Source: a virus
Taxonomy: Duplodnaviria; Heunggongvirae; Uroviricota; Caudoviricetes
Reading direction: 5' to 3' (one strand)
IMG/VR virus record: IMGVR_UViG_2619619131_000010
DNA: 6,611 nucleotides
In this document: positions 1,674 through 6,611 of the stretch, piece after piece
Numbering within the stretch: position 1 is the stretch's first letter
Layout of the letters: every line of letters starts with the position of its first letter
Program-made: the position numbers and the translations under genes
The notes under the pieces: model-generated
Seen by the model: only the letters and a program-made list of their open reading frames with translations
What the model was told of the DNA's origin: nothing
The model's database searches: none

Positions 1674-1842
1674 TATCGCGTCCTCAACAATGAATTTTGT
1701 GATGCGGTGCCTGGTGCCTCCAGGTGACGTTAACCAGTTAACAATTAACGCCGGATACAGAGAATCCACCCATAACACTGTTTTTGGTTTTAACTGTTCC
1801 GCGTGCGCTCAGCCGCATTCACCACATCACAAAATTCACTTT

Positions 1843-1885
1843 AAAAAGGGCGGCAGAGCAGTCACGGAGTAAAACTGATACCGCC
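1843..1885 (-). terminator. candidate intrinsic terminator for leftward transcription (imperfect hairpin followed by CUUUUU on the minus-strand RNA)
   Basis: Minus-strand RNA: GGCGG ... (CAGU/ACUG inner pairs) ... CCGCC then CTTTTTAAAG. The long loop makes this weak. Confidence 0.2.
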
Positions 1886-2234
1886 AAACGTCACCAGAAA
1901 ATTGATAACAGAGGGCGTTGCAGCGGGGTTGTCACTTAAGCGTATGGTCAACCTGACAACTCGGTGTCCTCAACGGGGAAGGAATAACCCCGCCATACTT
2001 ACCGCCGCGCCATTTCGCGGATTGCCACAACCGGAAACGCACGGTCGACGAAAATTTAACGACAGGCTATCTATGAACCAGCTACCTCGCCGGGCGCTTT
2101 CGCGTTATGGTCTGACTTTTCAGGGAAATATCCTTTCAGTAAACTGTCAGTGCCGGATGCTCACCCGTGTCCGGCGCACGCACTCCACCTCACCCGTGGA
2201 GAACTCCTTAATCACCAACCCTCAGGAGGGTGAA

Positions 2235-2972: not shown

Positions 2973-3153
2973 GCTGACCTCATTTCCCCTTAACGCCGGG
3001 GTAGCGGAACAAAAACCTGCTGCATAGTTATTAAAGTTGAACCCTGCCGTCATGTTCTTACGCCTCGGGCTGGCTACTTAACCCCTGACCACTGCCTGGT
3101 AACTCGAGGTATTGCCCTGTATTGTGTGGGACGGGATGGGTTGGTATGGGAAA

Positions 3154-3182
3154 ACTATAGGAAATGCCTAATTACTTGTCAA
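3154..3182 (-). promoter_or_regulatory. PL-like early leftward promoter: -35 TTGACA, 17-bp spacer, -10 TATAGT on the minus strand
   Basis: Minus-strand TTGACA at 3182-3177 and TATAGT at 3159-3154. The -35 lies inside the operator copy. Confidence 0.6.
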
Positions 3183-3219
3183 TAGGCTATGCCTAATAAT
3201 TTGGGCGCAACCTAATAGG
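3166..3219. promoter_or_regulatory. OL-like operator cluster with TTAGGC/GCCTAA half-sites
   Basis: 3176-3198 is an exact 23-bp reverse-complement copy of 3819-3841 (ttgtcaataggctatgcctaata). Extra GCCTAAT (3166-3172) and CCTAATAGG (3211-3219) half-sites. Confidence 0.55.
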
Positions 3220-3290
3220 TGATGGTTTGTGGGAGAGGTAGTAGGAGTTAACTAACGGGAACTAGGAATTTCCCGTCGGACCATATAAGT

Positions 3291-3767
3291 TTAAGTTCCT
3301 GTCTTGGTGATGTTCTGGCTTTTCCGTTTTGATTCTTGATTTTTCAGATAGTTAGCTACCTTCATTTCCATTGCGGCAATGTAGGCGCGAACGTCATAAT
3401 CAACCCAACTAGGCTCCGTAGCATTTCCAGATAAGATGAAAGCCACAATTGCTTTTTTTTCATCAGAGGCGGCTTGATAAAGGCTGTTTATGTCTAAAAG
3501 TTCACTTTTTGTATCTGAAGTGGATGGGGTTGGTATGGGGTATTCGTTAAGCCCCCAATGCTCTGGACCAACCACATCAGAAAAGAAACGCCATAGTTCT
3601 GGAAGTTTGTCTTTACTTATCGAACCTTTCTTAATCCAGTCATGGATTGATGGTGGTTGGACTTTGAAATGACGTGCGATTTCCGCCTTTGATTTGACGG
3701 CTCCTGATGCAATTTTTTTGTTAATGGCCTGCTCTATCGCTCGGCCTAAGTCTTTACCACTAAGCAT
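3291..3767 (-). CDS. racR: Rac-type prophage repressor (RacR-like, 158 aa), the cI-equivalent immunity repressor
   Basis: Track ORF MLSGKDLGRAIEQAINKKIASGAVKSKAEIARHFKVQPPSIHDWIKKGS... with an N-terminal HTH. Divergent from the ydaS-like gene and flanked by operator-bearing promoters. Name from memory of E. coli K-12 RacR. Confidence 0.85.
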   Translation of the reverse strand: MLSGKDLGRAIEQAINKKIASGAVKSKAEIARHFKVQPPSIHDWIKKGSISKDKLPELWRFFSDVVGPEHWGLNEYPIPTPSTSDTKSELLDINSLYQAASDEKKAIVAFILSGNATEPSWVDYDVRAYIAAMEMKVANYLKNQESKRKSQNITKTGT

Positions 3768-3818: not shown

Positions 3819-3864
3819 TATTAGGCATAGCCTATTGACAATTTCATTAGGCTAAGCCTAATAT
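3819..3864 (+). promoter_or_regulatory. PR-like early rightward promoter (-35 TTGACA 3835-3840, 18-bp spacer, -10 TAATAT 3859-3864) with overlapping OR-like operators
   Basis: Near-consensus hexamers about 28 nt upstream of the ydaS start. Operator inverted repeats TTAGGCatAGCCTA (3821-3834) and TTAGGCtaAGCCTAA (3847-3861) overlap the -35 and -10. Confidence 0.6.
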
Positions 3865-4215: not shown

Positions 4216-4624
4216 GCACATCCGCATGGCGATGAATGCCTGGGCATACCCTGATGGTGAGAAAGTTCCTGCAGCTGAAATAGCCCGGACTTATTTCGAA
4301 CTGGGGATGACGTTCCCTGAACTGTACGACGACAGCCATCCGGAAGCCCTGGCCCGTAATACCCAGAAAATTTTCCGTTGGCTGGATAAAGACACCCCTG
4401 ATGCTGTTGAAAAAATGCAGGCTCTGTTACCGGCGATCGAAAAGGCGATGCCGCCTTTGCTGGTGGCCCGTATGCGCAGCCACAGTTCTGAATATTACCG
4501 TGAGATCGTCGAACGGAGGGATCGGCTGGTGAAGGATGTCGATGATTTTGTTGCGTCAGCGGTTGTTTTGTATGACCAGATGAATCGCGGCGGCCCGGCA
4601 GGGAATGCTGTGGTGATGCACTAA
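4199..4624 (+). CDS. ydaT: YdaT-like protein (141 aa); the family has been annotated as a toxin but is also described as a CII-like regulator
   Basis: MKIKHEHIRMAMNAWAYPDGEKVPAAEIARTYFELGMTFPELYDDSHPEALARNTQKIFRW... matches my recollection of Rac YdaT. Start overlaps the ydaS 3' end by 17 nt. Confidence 0.85.
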   Translation: MKIKHEHIRMAMNAWAYPDGEKVPAAEIARTYFELGMTFPELYDDSHPEALARNTQKIFRWLDKDTPDAVEKMQALLPAIEKAMPPLLVARMRSHSSEYYREIVERRDRLVKDVDDFVASAVVLYDQMNRGGPAGNAVVMH

Positions 4625-4646
4625 AAGCACGGTGTTCGGGGGTTTT

Positions 4647-5609
4647 ATGAGCAGCAAGCTTCATGGTCTTGTCTGGGAAGGGTGCGCCTTCACCGGCATG
4701 ATCTTATCCAGGGTGGCGGTTATGGCCCGTCTTGCAGACTACAGCAATGACGAGGGCGTGTCATGGCCTGCCATTGAAACTATCCGGCGTCAGATCGGTG
4801 CAAGAAGTGAATCCACAGTGAAATCGGCTATTGCAGAACTGGCGAAAGAGGGCTGGCTGACGAAGGAAGAGCGTAAGGTCGGTGGGCGTAATGTAAGCAA
4901 TATCTATCGGCTTAATGTGGAAAAACTCGAAGCAGCTGCGGCGGCGGCGCGTGAGTCATATAAACCGAAAAGAAAAATTAGCCCGGCAAAAAATGACCCG
5001 TTAACAGTTGACCCGTCAAATATTGACCCCTCAACGGTTGACCCGTCAAATTTTGATGGATCAACTGTTGATAAAAAACTGCCGATTAGGGGGGCGATGA
5101 TTGACCCCGATCCGTCAGTATTAAAACCTGATCCGTCAGATAAAAGATCTTCTTGTCCGGACGCTTCGCAACCGGACCCGCAGACGGCTGAACAGGATTT
5201 TTTAACCCGACACCCTGACGCGGTTGTGTTCAGTGCGAAAAAACGCCAGTGGGGAAGTCAGGAAGATTTGGTGTGCGCACAGTGGATCTGGGGACGAATC
5301 GTGAGTCTTTACGAGCAGGCGGCCAGCGATGATGGCGAGATCACTAGACCGAAAGAACCCAACTGGACAGCATGGGCCAATGACGTTCGCACAATGCGGA
5401 TGCTGGATGGCAGAACTCACAGACAAATTTGTGAAATGTTTGGGCGTCTCCAGCGGGATTCGTTCTGGGTAAAAAACATCATGAGTCCGGCAAAACTCCG
5501 GGAAAAATGGGATGAACTGGTTATCCGCCTGGGGCGTTCGCCTGCGCAGCGTTGCGTGAATCACATTTCTGAACCGGACACTGAAATTCCGCCGGGCTTC
5601 AGGGGGTAA
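4647..5609 (+). CDS. phage replication initiator (lambda O-like architecture: N-terminal winged-HTH, iteron-encoding linker, C-terminal domain), 320 aa
   Basis: ATG at 4647 after a GGGGG run (the track ORF starts at an upstream GTG at 4632). N-terminal region (ILSRVAVMARLADYSNDEGVSWPAIETIRRQIGARSESTVKSAIAELAKEGWL) looks like a replication-initiator wHTH. Internal DPS-repeat linker coincides with the DNA iterons. Confidence 0.75.
   Translation: MSSKLHGLVWEGCAFTGMILSRVAVMARLADYSNDEGVSWPAIETIRRQIGARSESTVKSAIAELAKEGWLTKEERKVGGRNVSNIYRLNVEKLEAAAAAARESYKPKRKISPAKNDPLTVDPSNIDPSTVDPSNFDGSTVDKKLPIRGAMIDPDPSVLKPDPSDKRSSCPDASQPDPQTAEQDFLTRHPDAVVFSAKKRQWGSQEDLVCAQWIWGRIVSLYEQAASDDGEITRPKEPNWTAWANDVRTMRMLDGRTHRQICEMFGRLQRDSFWVKNIMSPAKLREKWDELVIRLGRSPAQRCVNHISEPDTEIPPGFRG
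4993..5079. repeat. iteron array (probable prophage replication origin): six 15-bp-periodic dyad-symmetric repeats, consensus TTGACCCGTCAA
   Basis: Repeats start at 4993/4994, 5008, 5023, 5038, 5053 and 5068 (TTGACCCGTCAA twice, TTGACCCCTCAA, TTGATGGATCAA, and degenerate end copies). Related copies at 5101-5117 and 5127-5140. Confidence 0.6.
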
Positions 5610-5649: not shown

Positions 5650-6072
5650 GTGGCAAAAGTTTTTACACAAGAAGAGCGGGAGAAAATTAAAGGGCAGGTT
5701 GTTGAACTCGTACGCCAGAGTGGGCGCGAGACGTTACGACAACTGGAAACTAAAACTGGGGCAACAAGATATCTGATGAGCGTTCTGACCAGAGAGCTGG
5801 TTGCCAGTGGCGATGTATACAACTCTGGTTACGGGTTATTCCCGTCTGAACAGGTGCGTAAGGACTGGCAAAATGCCCGTAAAAAGCTCTCAAGGGCAAA
5901 GCCGAAGAAACCATCTGCGGTTGATCCGGACCTTATCTGGTCATTACCTGACGGAGAAATACGTCGCTACGACAGGCGTCAGAACATAATCTGTCGCGAG
6001 TGCCGGAAGAGCGAAGTTATGCAGCGCATATTGTCGTTTTATCAGGGTAATTTTCAGAAGGTGCTGTTGTGA
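5650..6072 (+). CDS. hypothetical 140-aa protein, possible HTH/winged-helix DNA-binding protein, downstream of the replication initiator
   Basis: GTG start at 5650 with AGGAGG 5 nt upstream (MAKVFTQEEREKIKGQVVELVRQSGRETLRQLETKTGATRYLMSV...). No Walker motif, so not a DnaC/P-type loader. Confidence 0.65.
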   Translation: MAKVFTQEEREKIKGQVVELVRQSGRETLRQLETKTGATRYLMSVLTRELVASGDVYNSGYGLFPSEQVRKDWQNARKKLSRAKPKKPSAVDPDLIWSLPDGEIRRYDRRQNIICRECRKSEVMQRILSFYQGNFQKVLL

Positions 6073-6176
6073 GCCAAATTAACAATCGGAACTTCGTGAA
6101 GAGAAAGCATAATCCAAATCTGGTGATGCTGCCAACTTACTGATTTAGTGTATGATGGTGTTTTTGAGGTGCTCCA

Positions 6177-6452
6177 GTGGCTTCTGTTTCTATCAGCTGT
6201 CCCTCCTGTTCAGCTACTGACGGGGTGGTGCGTAACGGCAAAAGCACCGCCGGACATCAGCGCTATCTCTGCTCTCACTGCCGTAAAACATGGCAACTGC
6301 AGTTCACTTACACCGCTTCTCAACCCGGTACGCACCAGAAAATCATTGATATGGCCATGAATGGCGTTGGATGCCGGGCAACTGCCCGCATTATCGGCGT
6401 TGGCCTCAACACGATTTTACGTCACTTAAAAAACTCAGGCCGCAGTCGGTAA
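6177..6452 (+). CDS. insA: IS1 InsA (transposition repressor, 91 aa)
   Basis: [51 protein letters not shown]... is the canonical InsA sequence; GTG start. Confidence 0.95.
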
Positions 6453-6611
6453 CCTCGCGCATACAGCCGGGCAGTGACGTCATCGTCTGCGCGGAAATGG
6501 ACGAACAGTGGGGCTATGTCGGGGCTAAATCGCGCCAGCGCTGGCTGTTTTACGCGTATGACAGGCTCCGGAAGACGGTTGTTGCGCACGTATTCGGTGA
6601 ACGCACTATGG
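6371..6611 (+). CDS. insB: IS1 InsB (transposase catalytic part, made as the InsAB' fusion by -1 frameshift), partial, 3' end outside the window
   Basis: Frame beginning atgccgggcaactgcccgc encodes MPGNSPHY...[33 protein letters not shown]..., recognisable as InsB. Confidence 0.9.

Follow-up and report, generated by a model that had tools for sequence, protein, structure and literature searches.

We analyzed a stretch of 6,611 nucleotides (nt) from a tailed virus (Caudoviricetes; IMG/VR record IMGVR_UViG_2619619131_000010), called the window here, with a focus on positions 1780 to 2234, which lie between leftward small genes and a 91-aa gene on the opposite strand. A first-pass annotation made from the sequence alone had found no credible gene on either strand of this segment. 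For proteins, that statement held; what it overlooked is an RNA gene, dicF, which encodes the 53-nt small regulatory RNA (sRNA) DicF at 1900 to 1848 of the minus strand. The Rfam DicF model (RF00039) matched positions 1899 to 1848 of the minus strand over its full length with a score of 76.7 bits (gathering score, 48; E = 3.7e-16). All 53 bases were identical to dicF (b1574) of Escherichia coli K-12 (NC_000913), with the seed and the body of the characterized K-12 DicF present. The other features of DicF were found as well, namely, a 3′ end formed by an intrinsic terminator (a hairpin absent from the features listed in the first-pass annotation) and a position upstream of dicB, which lies 175 nt downstream.

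The similarity to K-12 extended over the whole noncoding segment. Positions 1648 to 2221 (574 bp) were 97.7% identical to the ydfC-dicF-dicB region of the K-12 prophage Qin, and past 2221, the identity dropped to 27%. Within this block, a 115-nt domain directly upstream of DicF and its linker was 98.3% identical to its K-12 counterpart (values for the dicF-dicB spacer and the upstream leader are given in Table 1). On the basis of this pattern of identity, positions 1780 to 2234 correspond almost exactly to the conserved noncoding dicF module. A ydfA-like gene (DUF1391) lies upstream of the leader, and dicB and ydfD (DUF1482) lie downstream of it; this layout of annotated and Pfam-supported genes places the early-left operon on the minus strand. 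Pfam searches of the proteins in the window identified DicB, DUF1482, DUF1391, and the YdaS/YdaT genes of the right arm. An identical 601-bp stretch (positions 1700 to 2300) is held by E. coli MS 145-7, in which the RefSeq neighbors are an integrase, an excisionase, an exonuclease, DUF1482 (ydfD), dicB, the 91-aa hypothetical protein, a 106-aa hypothetical protein, DUF1391 (ydfA-like), racR, and YdaS-like and YdaT-like genes. The dicF locus was matched in 4,727 of 5,426 complete E. coli genomes (approximately 87%), at a median of two places per genome. We consider it very likely that the stretch belongs to the early-left (PL-type) operon of a Rac/Qin-like lambdoid prophage, of which it is the dicF segment, and that it works as a minus-strand RNA. 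Among the roles proposed in the first-pass annotation, that of a structured noncoding RNA was correct in substance, the RNA being DicF together with the structured 5′ part of its 190-nt precursor. The dicF locus itself is already known as the source of an sRNA that blocks cell division, and in this respect, our result is a rediscovery. [quoted passage not shown]

Transcription of the dicBF operon in K-12 starts at dicBp, a promoter repressed by DicA, and no internal promoter was found in the operon (PMC10448788). Northern blots revealed a transcript ending at dicF and read-through into dicB-ydfD, with a large share of transcripts stopping at the DicF terminator (PMC10448788). A 190-nt DicF species, which accumulates stably in stationary phase, is lost in the absence of RNase III, and the 53-nt DicF needs RNase E (PMC10448788). 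DicF is a trans-acting sRNA that works with Hfq, and the targets that it represses include ftsZ (PMC10448788; PMC5069750). The precursor lies within exactly the sequence found here (Fig. S1 of PMC10448788).

The 5′ part of the precursor contains the modestly novel component of this otherwise known locus, a self-contained, pseudoknot-bearing domain of 115 nt that is absent from Rfam. Its fold and its occurrence without the DicF seed in other phages are reported here. Comparative analysis resolved six helices (Table 1). In an alignment of 52 distinct sequences, 95.1% of the cells were paired, compared with 33 to 62% when the partners were slid. Changes on both sides were observed in 11 pairs, versus 3.1 ± 1.4 in shuffled alignments, and none of the 500 shuffles reached 11. 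A MAFFT alignment that was independent of structure fitting gave the same covariation picture, and single-sequence folds of five divergent families recovered P0, P1, P2-P3, and P4. The P3 stem occurred as CGGGG/CCCCG, CUGGG/CCCAG, CUGGGGC/GCUCCAG, and CAGGUG/CACCUG, and its loop was variable yet CU-rich (UCCUU, CCUCC, and CUCC). Frequent G-U and U-G pairs in P0 are possible on the minus strand only, which assigns the domain RNA to that strand. Many unpaired nucleotides (GGCGG-UAAG, ACACCG, and CAGGUUGACCAU) were invariant, an invariance partly imposed by the search pattern. No Rfam family matched the domain, and ARAGORN detected no tRNA-like or tmRNA-like element in it.

Nested symmetry and a GC content above that of the neighboring 91-aa gene had drawn attention to the segment. 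The GC content was indeed 52.5% in positions 1780 to 2234 versus 34.8% in the 91-aa gene, and all of the motifs listed at that time exist: GCGGGGTT (1923 to 1930), AACCCCGC (1986 to 1993), GTTGTCA (1928 to 1934), TGACAAC (1954 to 1960), and a CCGCG-N6-CGCGG hairpin, which lies at 2005 to 2020, one base off the 2004 to 2019 first reported. As statistics of a single sequence, the symmetry was unremarkable. The folding energy gave z values of -1.3 (minus strand) and -1.7 (plus strand) relative to shuffles, and inverted repeats with 7- to 8-nt arms were as frequent as in dinucleotide shuffles (p ~0.32). Across relatives, the inner stem (GTTGTCA with TGACAAC) proved to be real and corresponds to P4, with compensatory support, and the CCGCG hairpin corresponds to helix P1, which is conserved. 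The proposed outer stem between GCGGGGTT and AACCCCGC was not supported; its G's pair locally and covary with CCCCG at 1978 to 1974.

Table 1. Features of the dicF segment and its surroundings in the window
Feature	Positions	Strand	Basis or remark
Conserved folded domain, 115 nt, 5′ part of 190-nt precursor	2031-1917	minus	Comparative analysis, six helices
Helix P0	2031-2025 / 1923-1917	minus	Compensatory changes
Helix P1	2020-2016 / 2009-2005	minus	Conserved, no compensatory change
Helix P2	2004-2001 / 1965-1962	minus	Compensatory change in phage P7
Pseudoknot, internal loop to P4 loop	1998-1993 / 1947-1942	minus	Compensatory, phage P1 versus P7 and Qin
Helix P3	1992-1988 / 1978-1974	minus	Compensatory changes; kept with unrelated stems
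Helix P4	1961-1954 / 1934-1927	minus	Compensatory changes
Linker, 16 nt, domain to DicF	1916-1901	minus	K-12 dicF annotation and alignment
dicF, 53-nt DicF sRNA	1900-1848	minus	Rfam RF00039 and K-12 identity
DicF intrinsic terminator hairpin	1885-1849	minus	Folds at -17.3 kcal/mol; U run at 1847-1843
dicF-dicB spacer (dicB 5′ untranslated region)	1847-1674	minus	99.4% identical to K-12
dicB, cell-division inhibitor, next operon gene	1673-1485	minus	Pfam PF05358 DicB, E = 5e-37; RefSeq
Upstream untranslated leader	2221-2032	minus	95.8% identical to K-12 Qin; hairpins A and B and further hairpins
Hairpin A	2201-2183	minus	Leader
Hairpin B	2174-2153	minus	Leader
91-aa opposite-strand gene	2235-2510	plus	RefSeq hypothetical protein; marks conserved leader edge, outside the RNA element
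PL-like early-left promoter	3182-3154	minus	TTGACA, 17 nt, TATAGT; 11 of 12 consensus matches

A piece of approximately 100 to 120 nt upstream of DicF (approximately 2031 to 1909) was found alone in several other phages by BLAST. The domain occurs without the DicF seed in phages P1, P7, cdtI, and pPE4, in Stx2c phages, and in a Serratia symbiotica prophage. In cdtI and the Stx2c phages, it lies downstream of cI and PL (in cdtI, approximately 270 nt after PL); in P1 and P7, it lies just after the C1-controlled ban promoter (in P1, approximately 25 nt from the Pban start site); and in pPE4, it lies after a dicA-like repressor gene and before kil. The area of the domain is named a “dicF-like region” in the P1 annotation (NC_005856). 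A pattern scan added at least about 120 viral contigs as well as prophages of E. albertii, E. ruysiae, Shigella, and Serratia symbiotica. A covariance model of the domain (R1) scored 93 to 156 bits in the Qin-like, cdtI/Stx2c, P1, P7, pPE4, and Serratia loci (95 bits in P1 and 94 bits in P7), and R1 searches detected no second copy of the domain in the same locus and none on the rightward side. The 120 matches listed from a genome-wide pattern scan, for which the pattern proved too loose given 596 gigabases of sequence, were mostly chance matches, with real ones only in Escherichia, Shigella, and Serratia; two suggestive Burkholderiales matches gave no R1 hit and were dropped. Neither “dicF-like” nor put-like elements nor the domain sequence gave anything relevant in full-text searches, and the 1990 and 1994 papers of the Bouché laboratory may describe some of the homologies.

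What follows the domain is a terminator in nearly every case. Among the matches listed, 81 of 82 distinct downstream sequences carried a terminator hairpin and a U run 60 to 125 nt past the CAGGUUGACC motif of the domain, the lone exception being a decayed Shigella copy. The sequence between the domain and the terminator was variable, with the DicF seed in 90 of 130 loci and other sequence in the remaining 40 (again among the matches listed); the seedless versions were not matched by the Rfam DicF model. The linker between the domain and the terminator ranged from 12 to 59 nt (approximately 12 nt in the cdtI type). In pPE4 (vB_Apl-pPE4), a seed-plus-terminator module occurs in tandem at approximately 3100 to 3260, with terminators at 3134 to 3147 and 3227 to 3240 after one domain; its seed, AUGUUGAUUACCUUUU, is not DicF. 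Phage cdtI carries adjacent Rfam matches to C4 antisense RNA (68 bits) and isrK (60 bits) at 540 to 728 of its minus strand, near an antirepressor gene.

The spacer between dicF and dicB is likewise a conserved block, which follows the terminator in many loci behind differing seed/terminator cassettes. The Rfam model of STnc100 (RF02076) matched positions 1641 to 1850 with 39.8 bits, below its gathering score of 47, and subthreshold matches were likewise detected in pPE4 and P1. A second subthreshold STnc100-like match (33 bits) was observed in P1 at 4342 to 4461, near the upl/tciA promoters. Rather than a single sRNA, what the STnc100 model captures may be a leader block that recurs among phages.

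Combining the K-12 literature with the features of the window, we propose the following course of events. By analogy with dicBp of Qin (PMC10448788), the PL-like promoter is presumed to be the start of the transcript carrying the leader, dicF, and dicB. Leftward transcription from this repressor-controlled promoter would cross the ydfA-like gene, the 106-aa gene, the 91-aa gene (in antisense), and then an 814-nt untranslated region. A cut by RNase III just 5′ of the folded domain, here at about 2032 to 2037, would yield the 190-nt precursor, made up of the domain, the linker, and DicF. This cut was placed by counting 190 nt back from the terminator and by using the sequence in Fig. S1 of PMC10448788. 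RNase E, cutting at 1900, would then free the 53-nt DicF; this site lies at the 3′ edge of the linker (its position is derived from the K-12 annotation and alignment, and the dependence on RNase E is from PMC10448788). In the predicted fold, UGUUAUCA (1910 to 1903) pairs with the 5′ region of DicF. The 3′ end of DicF would be set by the intrinsic terminator, past which some transcription would continue into dicB and ydfD. The first-pass suggestion of a termination or antitermination region was accurate as far as termination is concerned, since the DicF terminator lies inside the leftward operon upstream of dicB; none of the present analyses showed antitermination. As a self-contained 5′ module, the domain may fix where the released RNA starts and stabilize this RNA, and it may serve as a scaffold carrying differing 3′ seed/terminator cassettes.

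A possible substrate for RNase III was found next to the domain. Pairing is possible between the 44 nt directly 5′ of P0 and the 5′ half of the domain (-30.6 kcal/mol; p ~0.04), and this predicted duplex is a candidate for the cleaved structure. As an alternative RNase III stalk, we evaluated a long-range helix formed by the domain's 5′ flank with the block that follows the terminator. The complementarity (CGUGCGCU/AGCGCACG in Qin-type loci and GUGCUCU/AGAGCAU in the cdtI type) gave a duplex z value of -0.3 relative to shuffles, with no compensatory change, and the local pairing scored better.

Several points weigh against this interpretation. Transcription and processing in this strain are carried over from K-12 by sequence identity. 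The RNase III site is deduced from the length of the RNA, and the scaffold or stability role of the domain is a proposal. The 52-sequence alignment was fitted to the nested helices, with the pseudoknot and P2 outside the model, and the search pattern behind the set of homologs (at least 120) fixes two conserved blocks, which are invariant by construction, so that diversity is undersampled. The P1 hairpin lacks compensatory change. Finally, the spacing of approximately 12 nt between domain and terminator in cdtI and the Stx2c phages, with no obvious seed, suggests that the domain acts on its own.

Upstream of the domain, the leader is conserved among Qin-type loci, with nested left boundaries. 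In other lineages, an unrelated stem, GACCACACG/CGUGUUGUC, takes the place of hairpin A. The top of hairpin A was found in both orientations among relatives (loop UGACAG or CUGUCA), a pattern resembling an inversion of the palindrome in the DNA. The 91-aa protein at the edge of the leader belongs to no Pfam or PHROG family. Its gene has its own plus-strand terminator (2536 to 2558), which lies inside the 106-aa minus-strand gene, and the two genes overlap by 23 bp at the end of the latter (2488 to 2510). In several other prophages, unrelated small opposite-strand genes (66 to 92 aa) occupy the same slot. Because these genes start exactly at the leader edge, the edge looks like a recombination joint for inserted genes.

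This arrangement bears on two readings that place the function of the segment outside the leftward RNA. The first-pass annotation had suggested a control region of the 91-aa gene; positions of approximately 2040 to 2234 would then be a DNA-level promoter/operator on the plus strand, with the 10-bp direct repeat CTCACCCGTG (confirmed at 2160 to 2169 and 2189 to 2198) as a pair of binding sites. The repeat is unusual relative to chance (p ~0.03), its copies precede the ATG by 46 and 75 bp, and the opposite-strand genes that begin at the leader edge elsewhere would fit such a role. However, no plus-strand promoter-like site was found in positions 2040 to 2234, and the leader is 96 to 98% conserved in K-12 Qin without the gene. 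In both K-12 and strain R11, the leader is kept with ydfC preceding it on the operon strand and no opposite-strand gene. The repeat was also not maintained in relatives: K-12, O121, STEC383, and Ec-U4 differ in one or both copies, which on the RNA fall in the hairpin A and hairpin B loops and represent a degenerate likeness of the two; hairpin A itself is replaced elsewhere, as noted above. We regard a control region as quite unlikely. It is extremely improbable that the stretch is protein coding, either through a 202-aa frame on the plus strand (1902 to 2510), which consists of the 91-aa frame and the 111-codon upstream extension pointed out in the first-pass annotation and does exist, or through a 36-aa frame on the minus strand (2042 to 1932). 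Both frames are open in the window, and the shorter one matched phrog_8854 (E = 1e-12). But the 111-aa extension had no Pfam or PHROG match, common P3 length differences of 1 nt and 4 nt shift both frames, stops occur in the cdtI, P1, P7, and Serratia variants, the leader exists in K-12 without the 91-aa gene, and RefSeq annotates the 91-aa gene alone. phrog_8854 is probably a family of spurious open reading frames called across the conserved RNA.

Three further readings concern what the domain itself does. The put RNAs of HK022 and HK639 suppress termination in cis by binding the beta′ zinc-binding domain of RNA polymerase, and the domain might be a processive antiterminator of this kind, representing a new self-contained class of phage RNA that acts on the transcription machinery. 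Once transcribed, it would bind its own RNA polymerase, which would pass the following and later terminators, and the early-left genes (dicB, ydfD, and the exonuclease; ban in P1) would be expressed thereby. Such a device would be widespread in E. coli prophages and P1-type phage-plasmids, with DicF-type seeds as passengers before the terminator. This reading agrees with the location of the domain in early operons downstream of repressor-controlled promoters (P1, cdtI, and pPE4), with the terminator that nearly always follows it among the matches listed (a strong one in P1, GCCCAUC-UUCG-GGUGGGC and at least six U's), and with a domain that its own stem closes and whose distance from that terminator varies, as expected of a factor-like RNA. 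No N-like gene was evident downstream in cdtI or within the window, and the domain has short motifs in common with putL (GGCGCG; ACCAUGCG in the P1 variant), which we treat as a lead only. However, sRNA genes need terminators too, and the association is therefore unspecific. R1 gave no match at HK022 putL/putR or HK639 putL with filters off and E values up to 10, and a put model built from the three put RNAs (R2) gave none at the domain in the window, K-12, P1, P7, cdtI, pPE4, or Serratia. Moreover, the domain is present as a single copy per locus with none on the rightward side, it lies approximately 1 kb from the promoter in Qin-type prophages, and a large share of the K-12 transcripts ends at the DicF terminator (PMC10448788). 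Taken together, antitermination by the domain appears unlikely, and an sRNA role is the more likely of the two.

In that sRNA role, which we put forward tentatively as a minority possibility, the domain itself would be the effector in a family of early phage sRNAs of approximately 170 to 190 nt, to which the DicF seed was a later addition in one subfamily. It could serve as a decoy for a protein or exert regulation via the pyrimidine-rich loop of P3. The seedless loci among the matches listed (40 of 130) keep both domain and terminator, those of the cdtI type are almost without a linker, many unpaired nucleotides are invariant, the P3 loop varies and remains CU-rich, and a stable 190-nt species exists in stationary-phase K-12 (PMC10448788). 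Against it, neither a target nor a partner is known, the invariance is partly a product of the search pattern, and the seedless versions fall outside the Rfam DicF model and have no publication that we could find. It is highly unlikely that the domain is a riboswitch-type sensor controlling the formation of the terminator after it. An aptamer-like fold was found, with a multihelix junction, a pseudoknot, conserved nucleotides in junctions and loops, covarying stems, and a terminator after it; such a fold alone shows no ligand. But no conserved alternative pairing between the domain and the 5′ strand of the terminator that could act as an expression platform was seen in 11 families, transcripts cut at the terminator loop folded with the domain closed by P0 in most families, the linker length varies, and no Rfam riboswitch was matched. 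We favor the reading of the segment as the dicF module of the early-left operon, with the domain as the 5′ part of the DicF precursor.

Additional features were observed elsewhere in the window. A 23-nt perfect inverted repeat, TTGTCAATAGGCTATGCCTAATA (3176 to 3198 and 3819 to 3841), flanks the racR-like repressor gene, with the PL-like promoter inside and a TTGACA hexamer in each copy; the divergent early promoters probably share these copies as operator and -35 regions. A related direct repeat was found at 3157 to 3178 and 3182 to 3203, and a 13-nt exact direct repeat, GGGTTGGTATGGG, was found at 3138 to 3150 (just past the PL-like promoter) and 3527 to 3539 (within the repressor gene). Inside a gene resembling HTH_36 replication initiators (4632 to 5609), several copies of TTGACCC(G/C)TCAA-like repeats (approximately 4985 to 5075) resemble origin iterons and caused a spurious Rfam mir-250 match at 5003 to 5069. 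An IS1 copy (approximately 6120 to 6611; InsA at 6177 to 6452, Pfam E = 2e-30) is truncated where the window ends and is inserted directly after a DUF977 gene (5650 to 6072). The otherwise identical prophage of MS 145-7 has an ATP-binding (DnaC-like) gene at this place.

What may merit follow-up work is the 5′ part of the 190-nt precursor, which has an independent, covariation-supported fold and is present in phages without DicF. If the domain has an activity of its own, such as antitermination, stabilization, or protein binding, phage early RNAs would form a modular family that includes DicF. Such an activity could also account for the gating of toxic early genes, such as dicB, by a terminator placed before them. 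If the antiterminator reading were true, the domain would control the expression of the early-left genes beyond its built-in terminator.

The closest known system is dicBF of K-12 Qin (RF00039; PMC10448788; PMC5069750), with which the window shares DicF, the terminator, the leader-dicF-spacer sequence, and the gene order (ydfA-like gene, leader, dicF, dicB, and ydfD). The domain makes up the 5′ portion of the 190-nt RNase III product described in the literature. The window differs in its racR-type repressor, its YdaS/YdaT right arm, and its Rac-type exonuclease, and it has the 106-aa gene and the opposite-strand 91-aa gene instead of ydfB and ydfC, the homology beginning only at 2221. The leader of the P1/P7 ban operon has the same folded domain, with compensatory changes in P2, P3, P4, and the pseudoknot, as well as an intrinsic terminator after it and a repressor-controlled early promoter upstream. 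In contrast to the window, P1 and P7 have no DicF seed and a different terminator, which is followed by tRNA genes and ban instead of dicB, and the domain begins approximately 25 nt from the transcription start.

The put elements (HK022 putL/putR and HK639 putL) are alike in being structured, self-contained RNAs of early phage operons upstream of terminators. Both groups of phages lack an evident N gene, and a few short motifs are common to them. The domain occupies the position of a put element, between the early promoter and terminators, but it does not have the sequence or structure of the put family: put RNAs form two stem-loops in approximately 70 nt, compared with six helices including a pseudoknot in 115 nt, the covariance models gave no match in either direction, and the domain is present in one copy per phage. 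Finally, DicF resembles the sRNAs that RNase III or RNase E processing frees from polycistronic transcripts, such as 3′-end-derived sRNAs (PMC9438474), in that it is excised from an operon transcript and ends at an intrinsic terminator, whereas a conserved, independently folding 5′ domain of 115 nt is unusual in that class.

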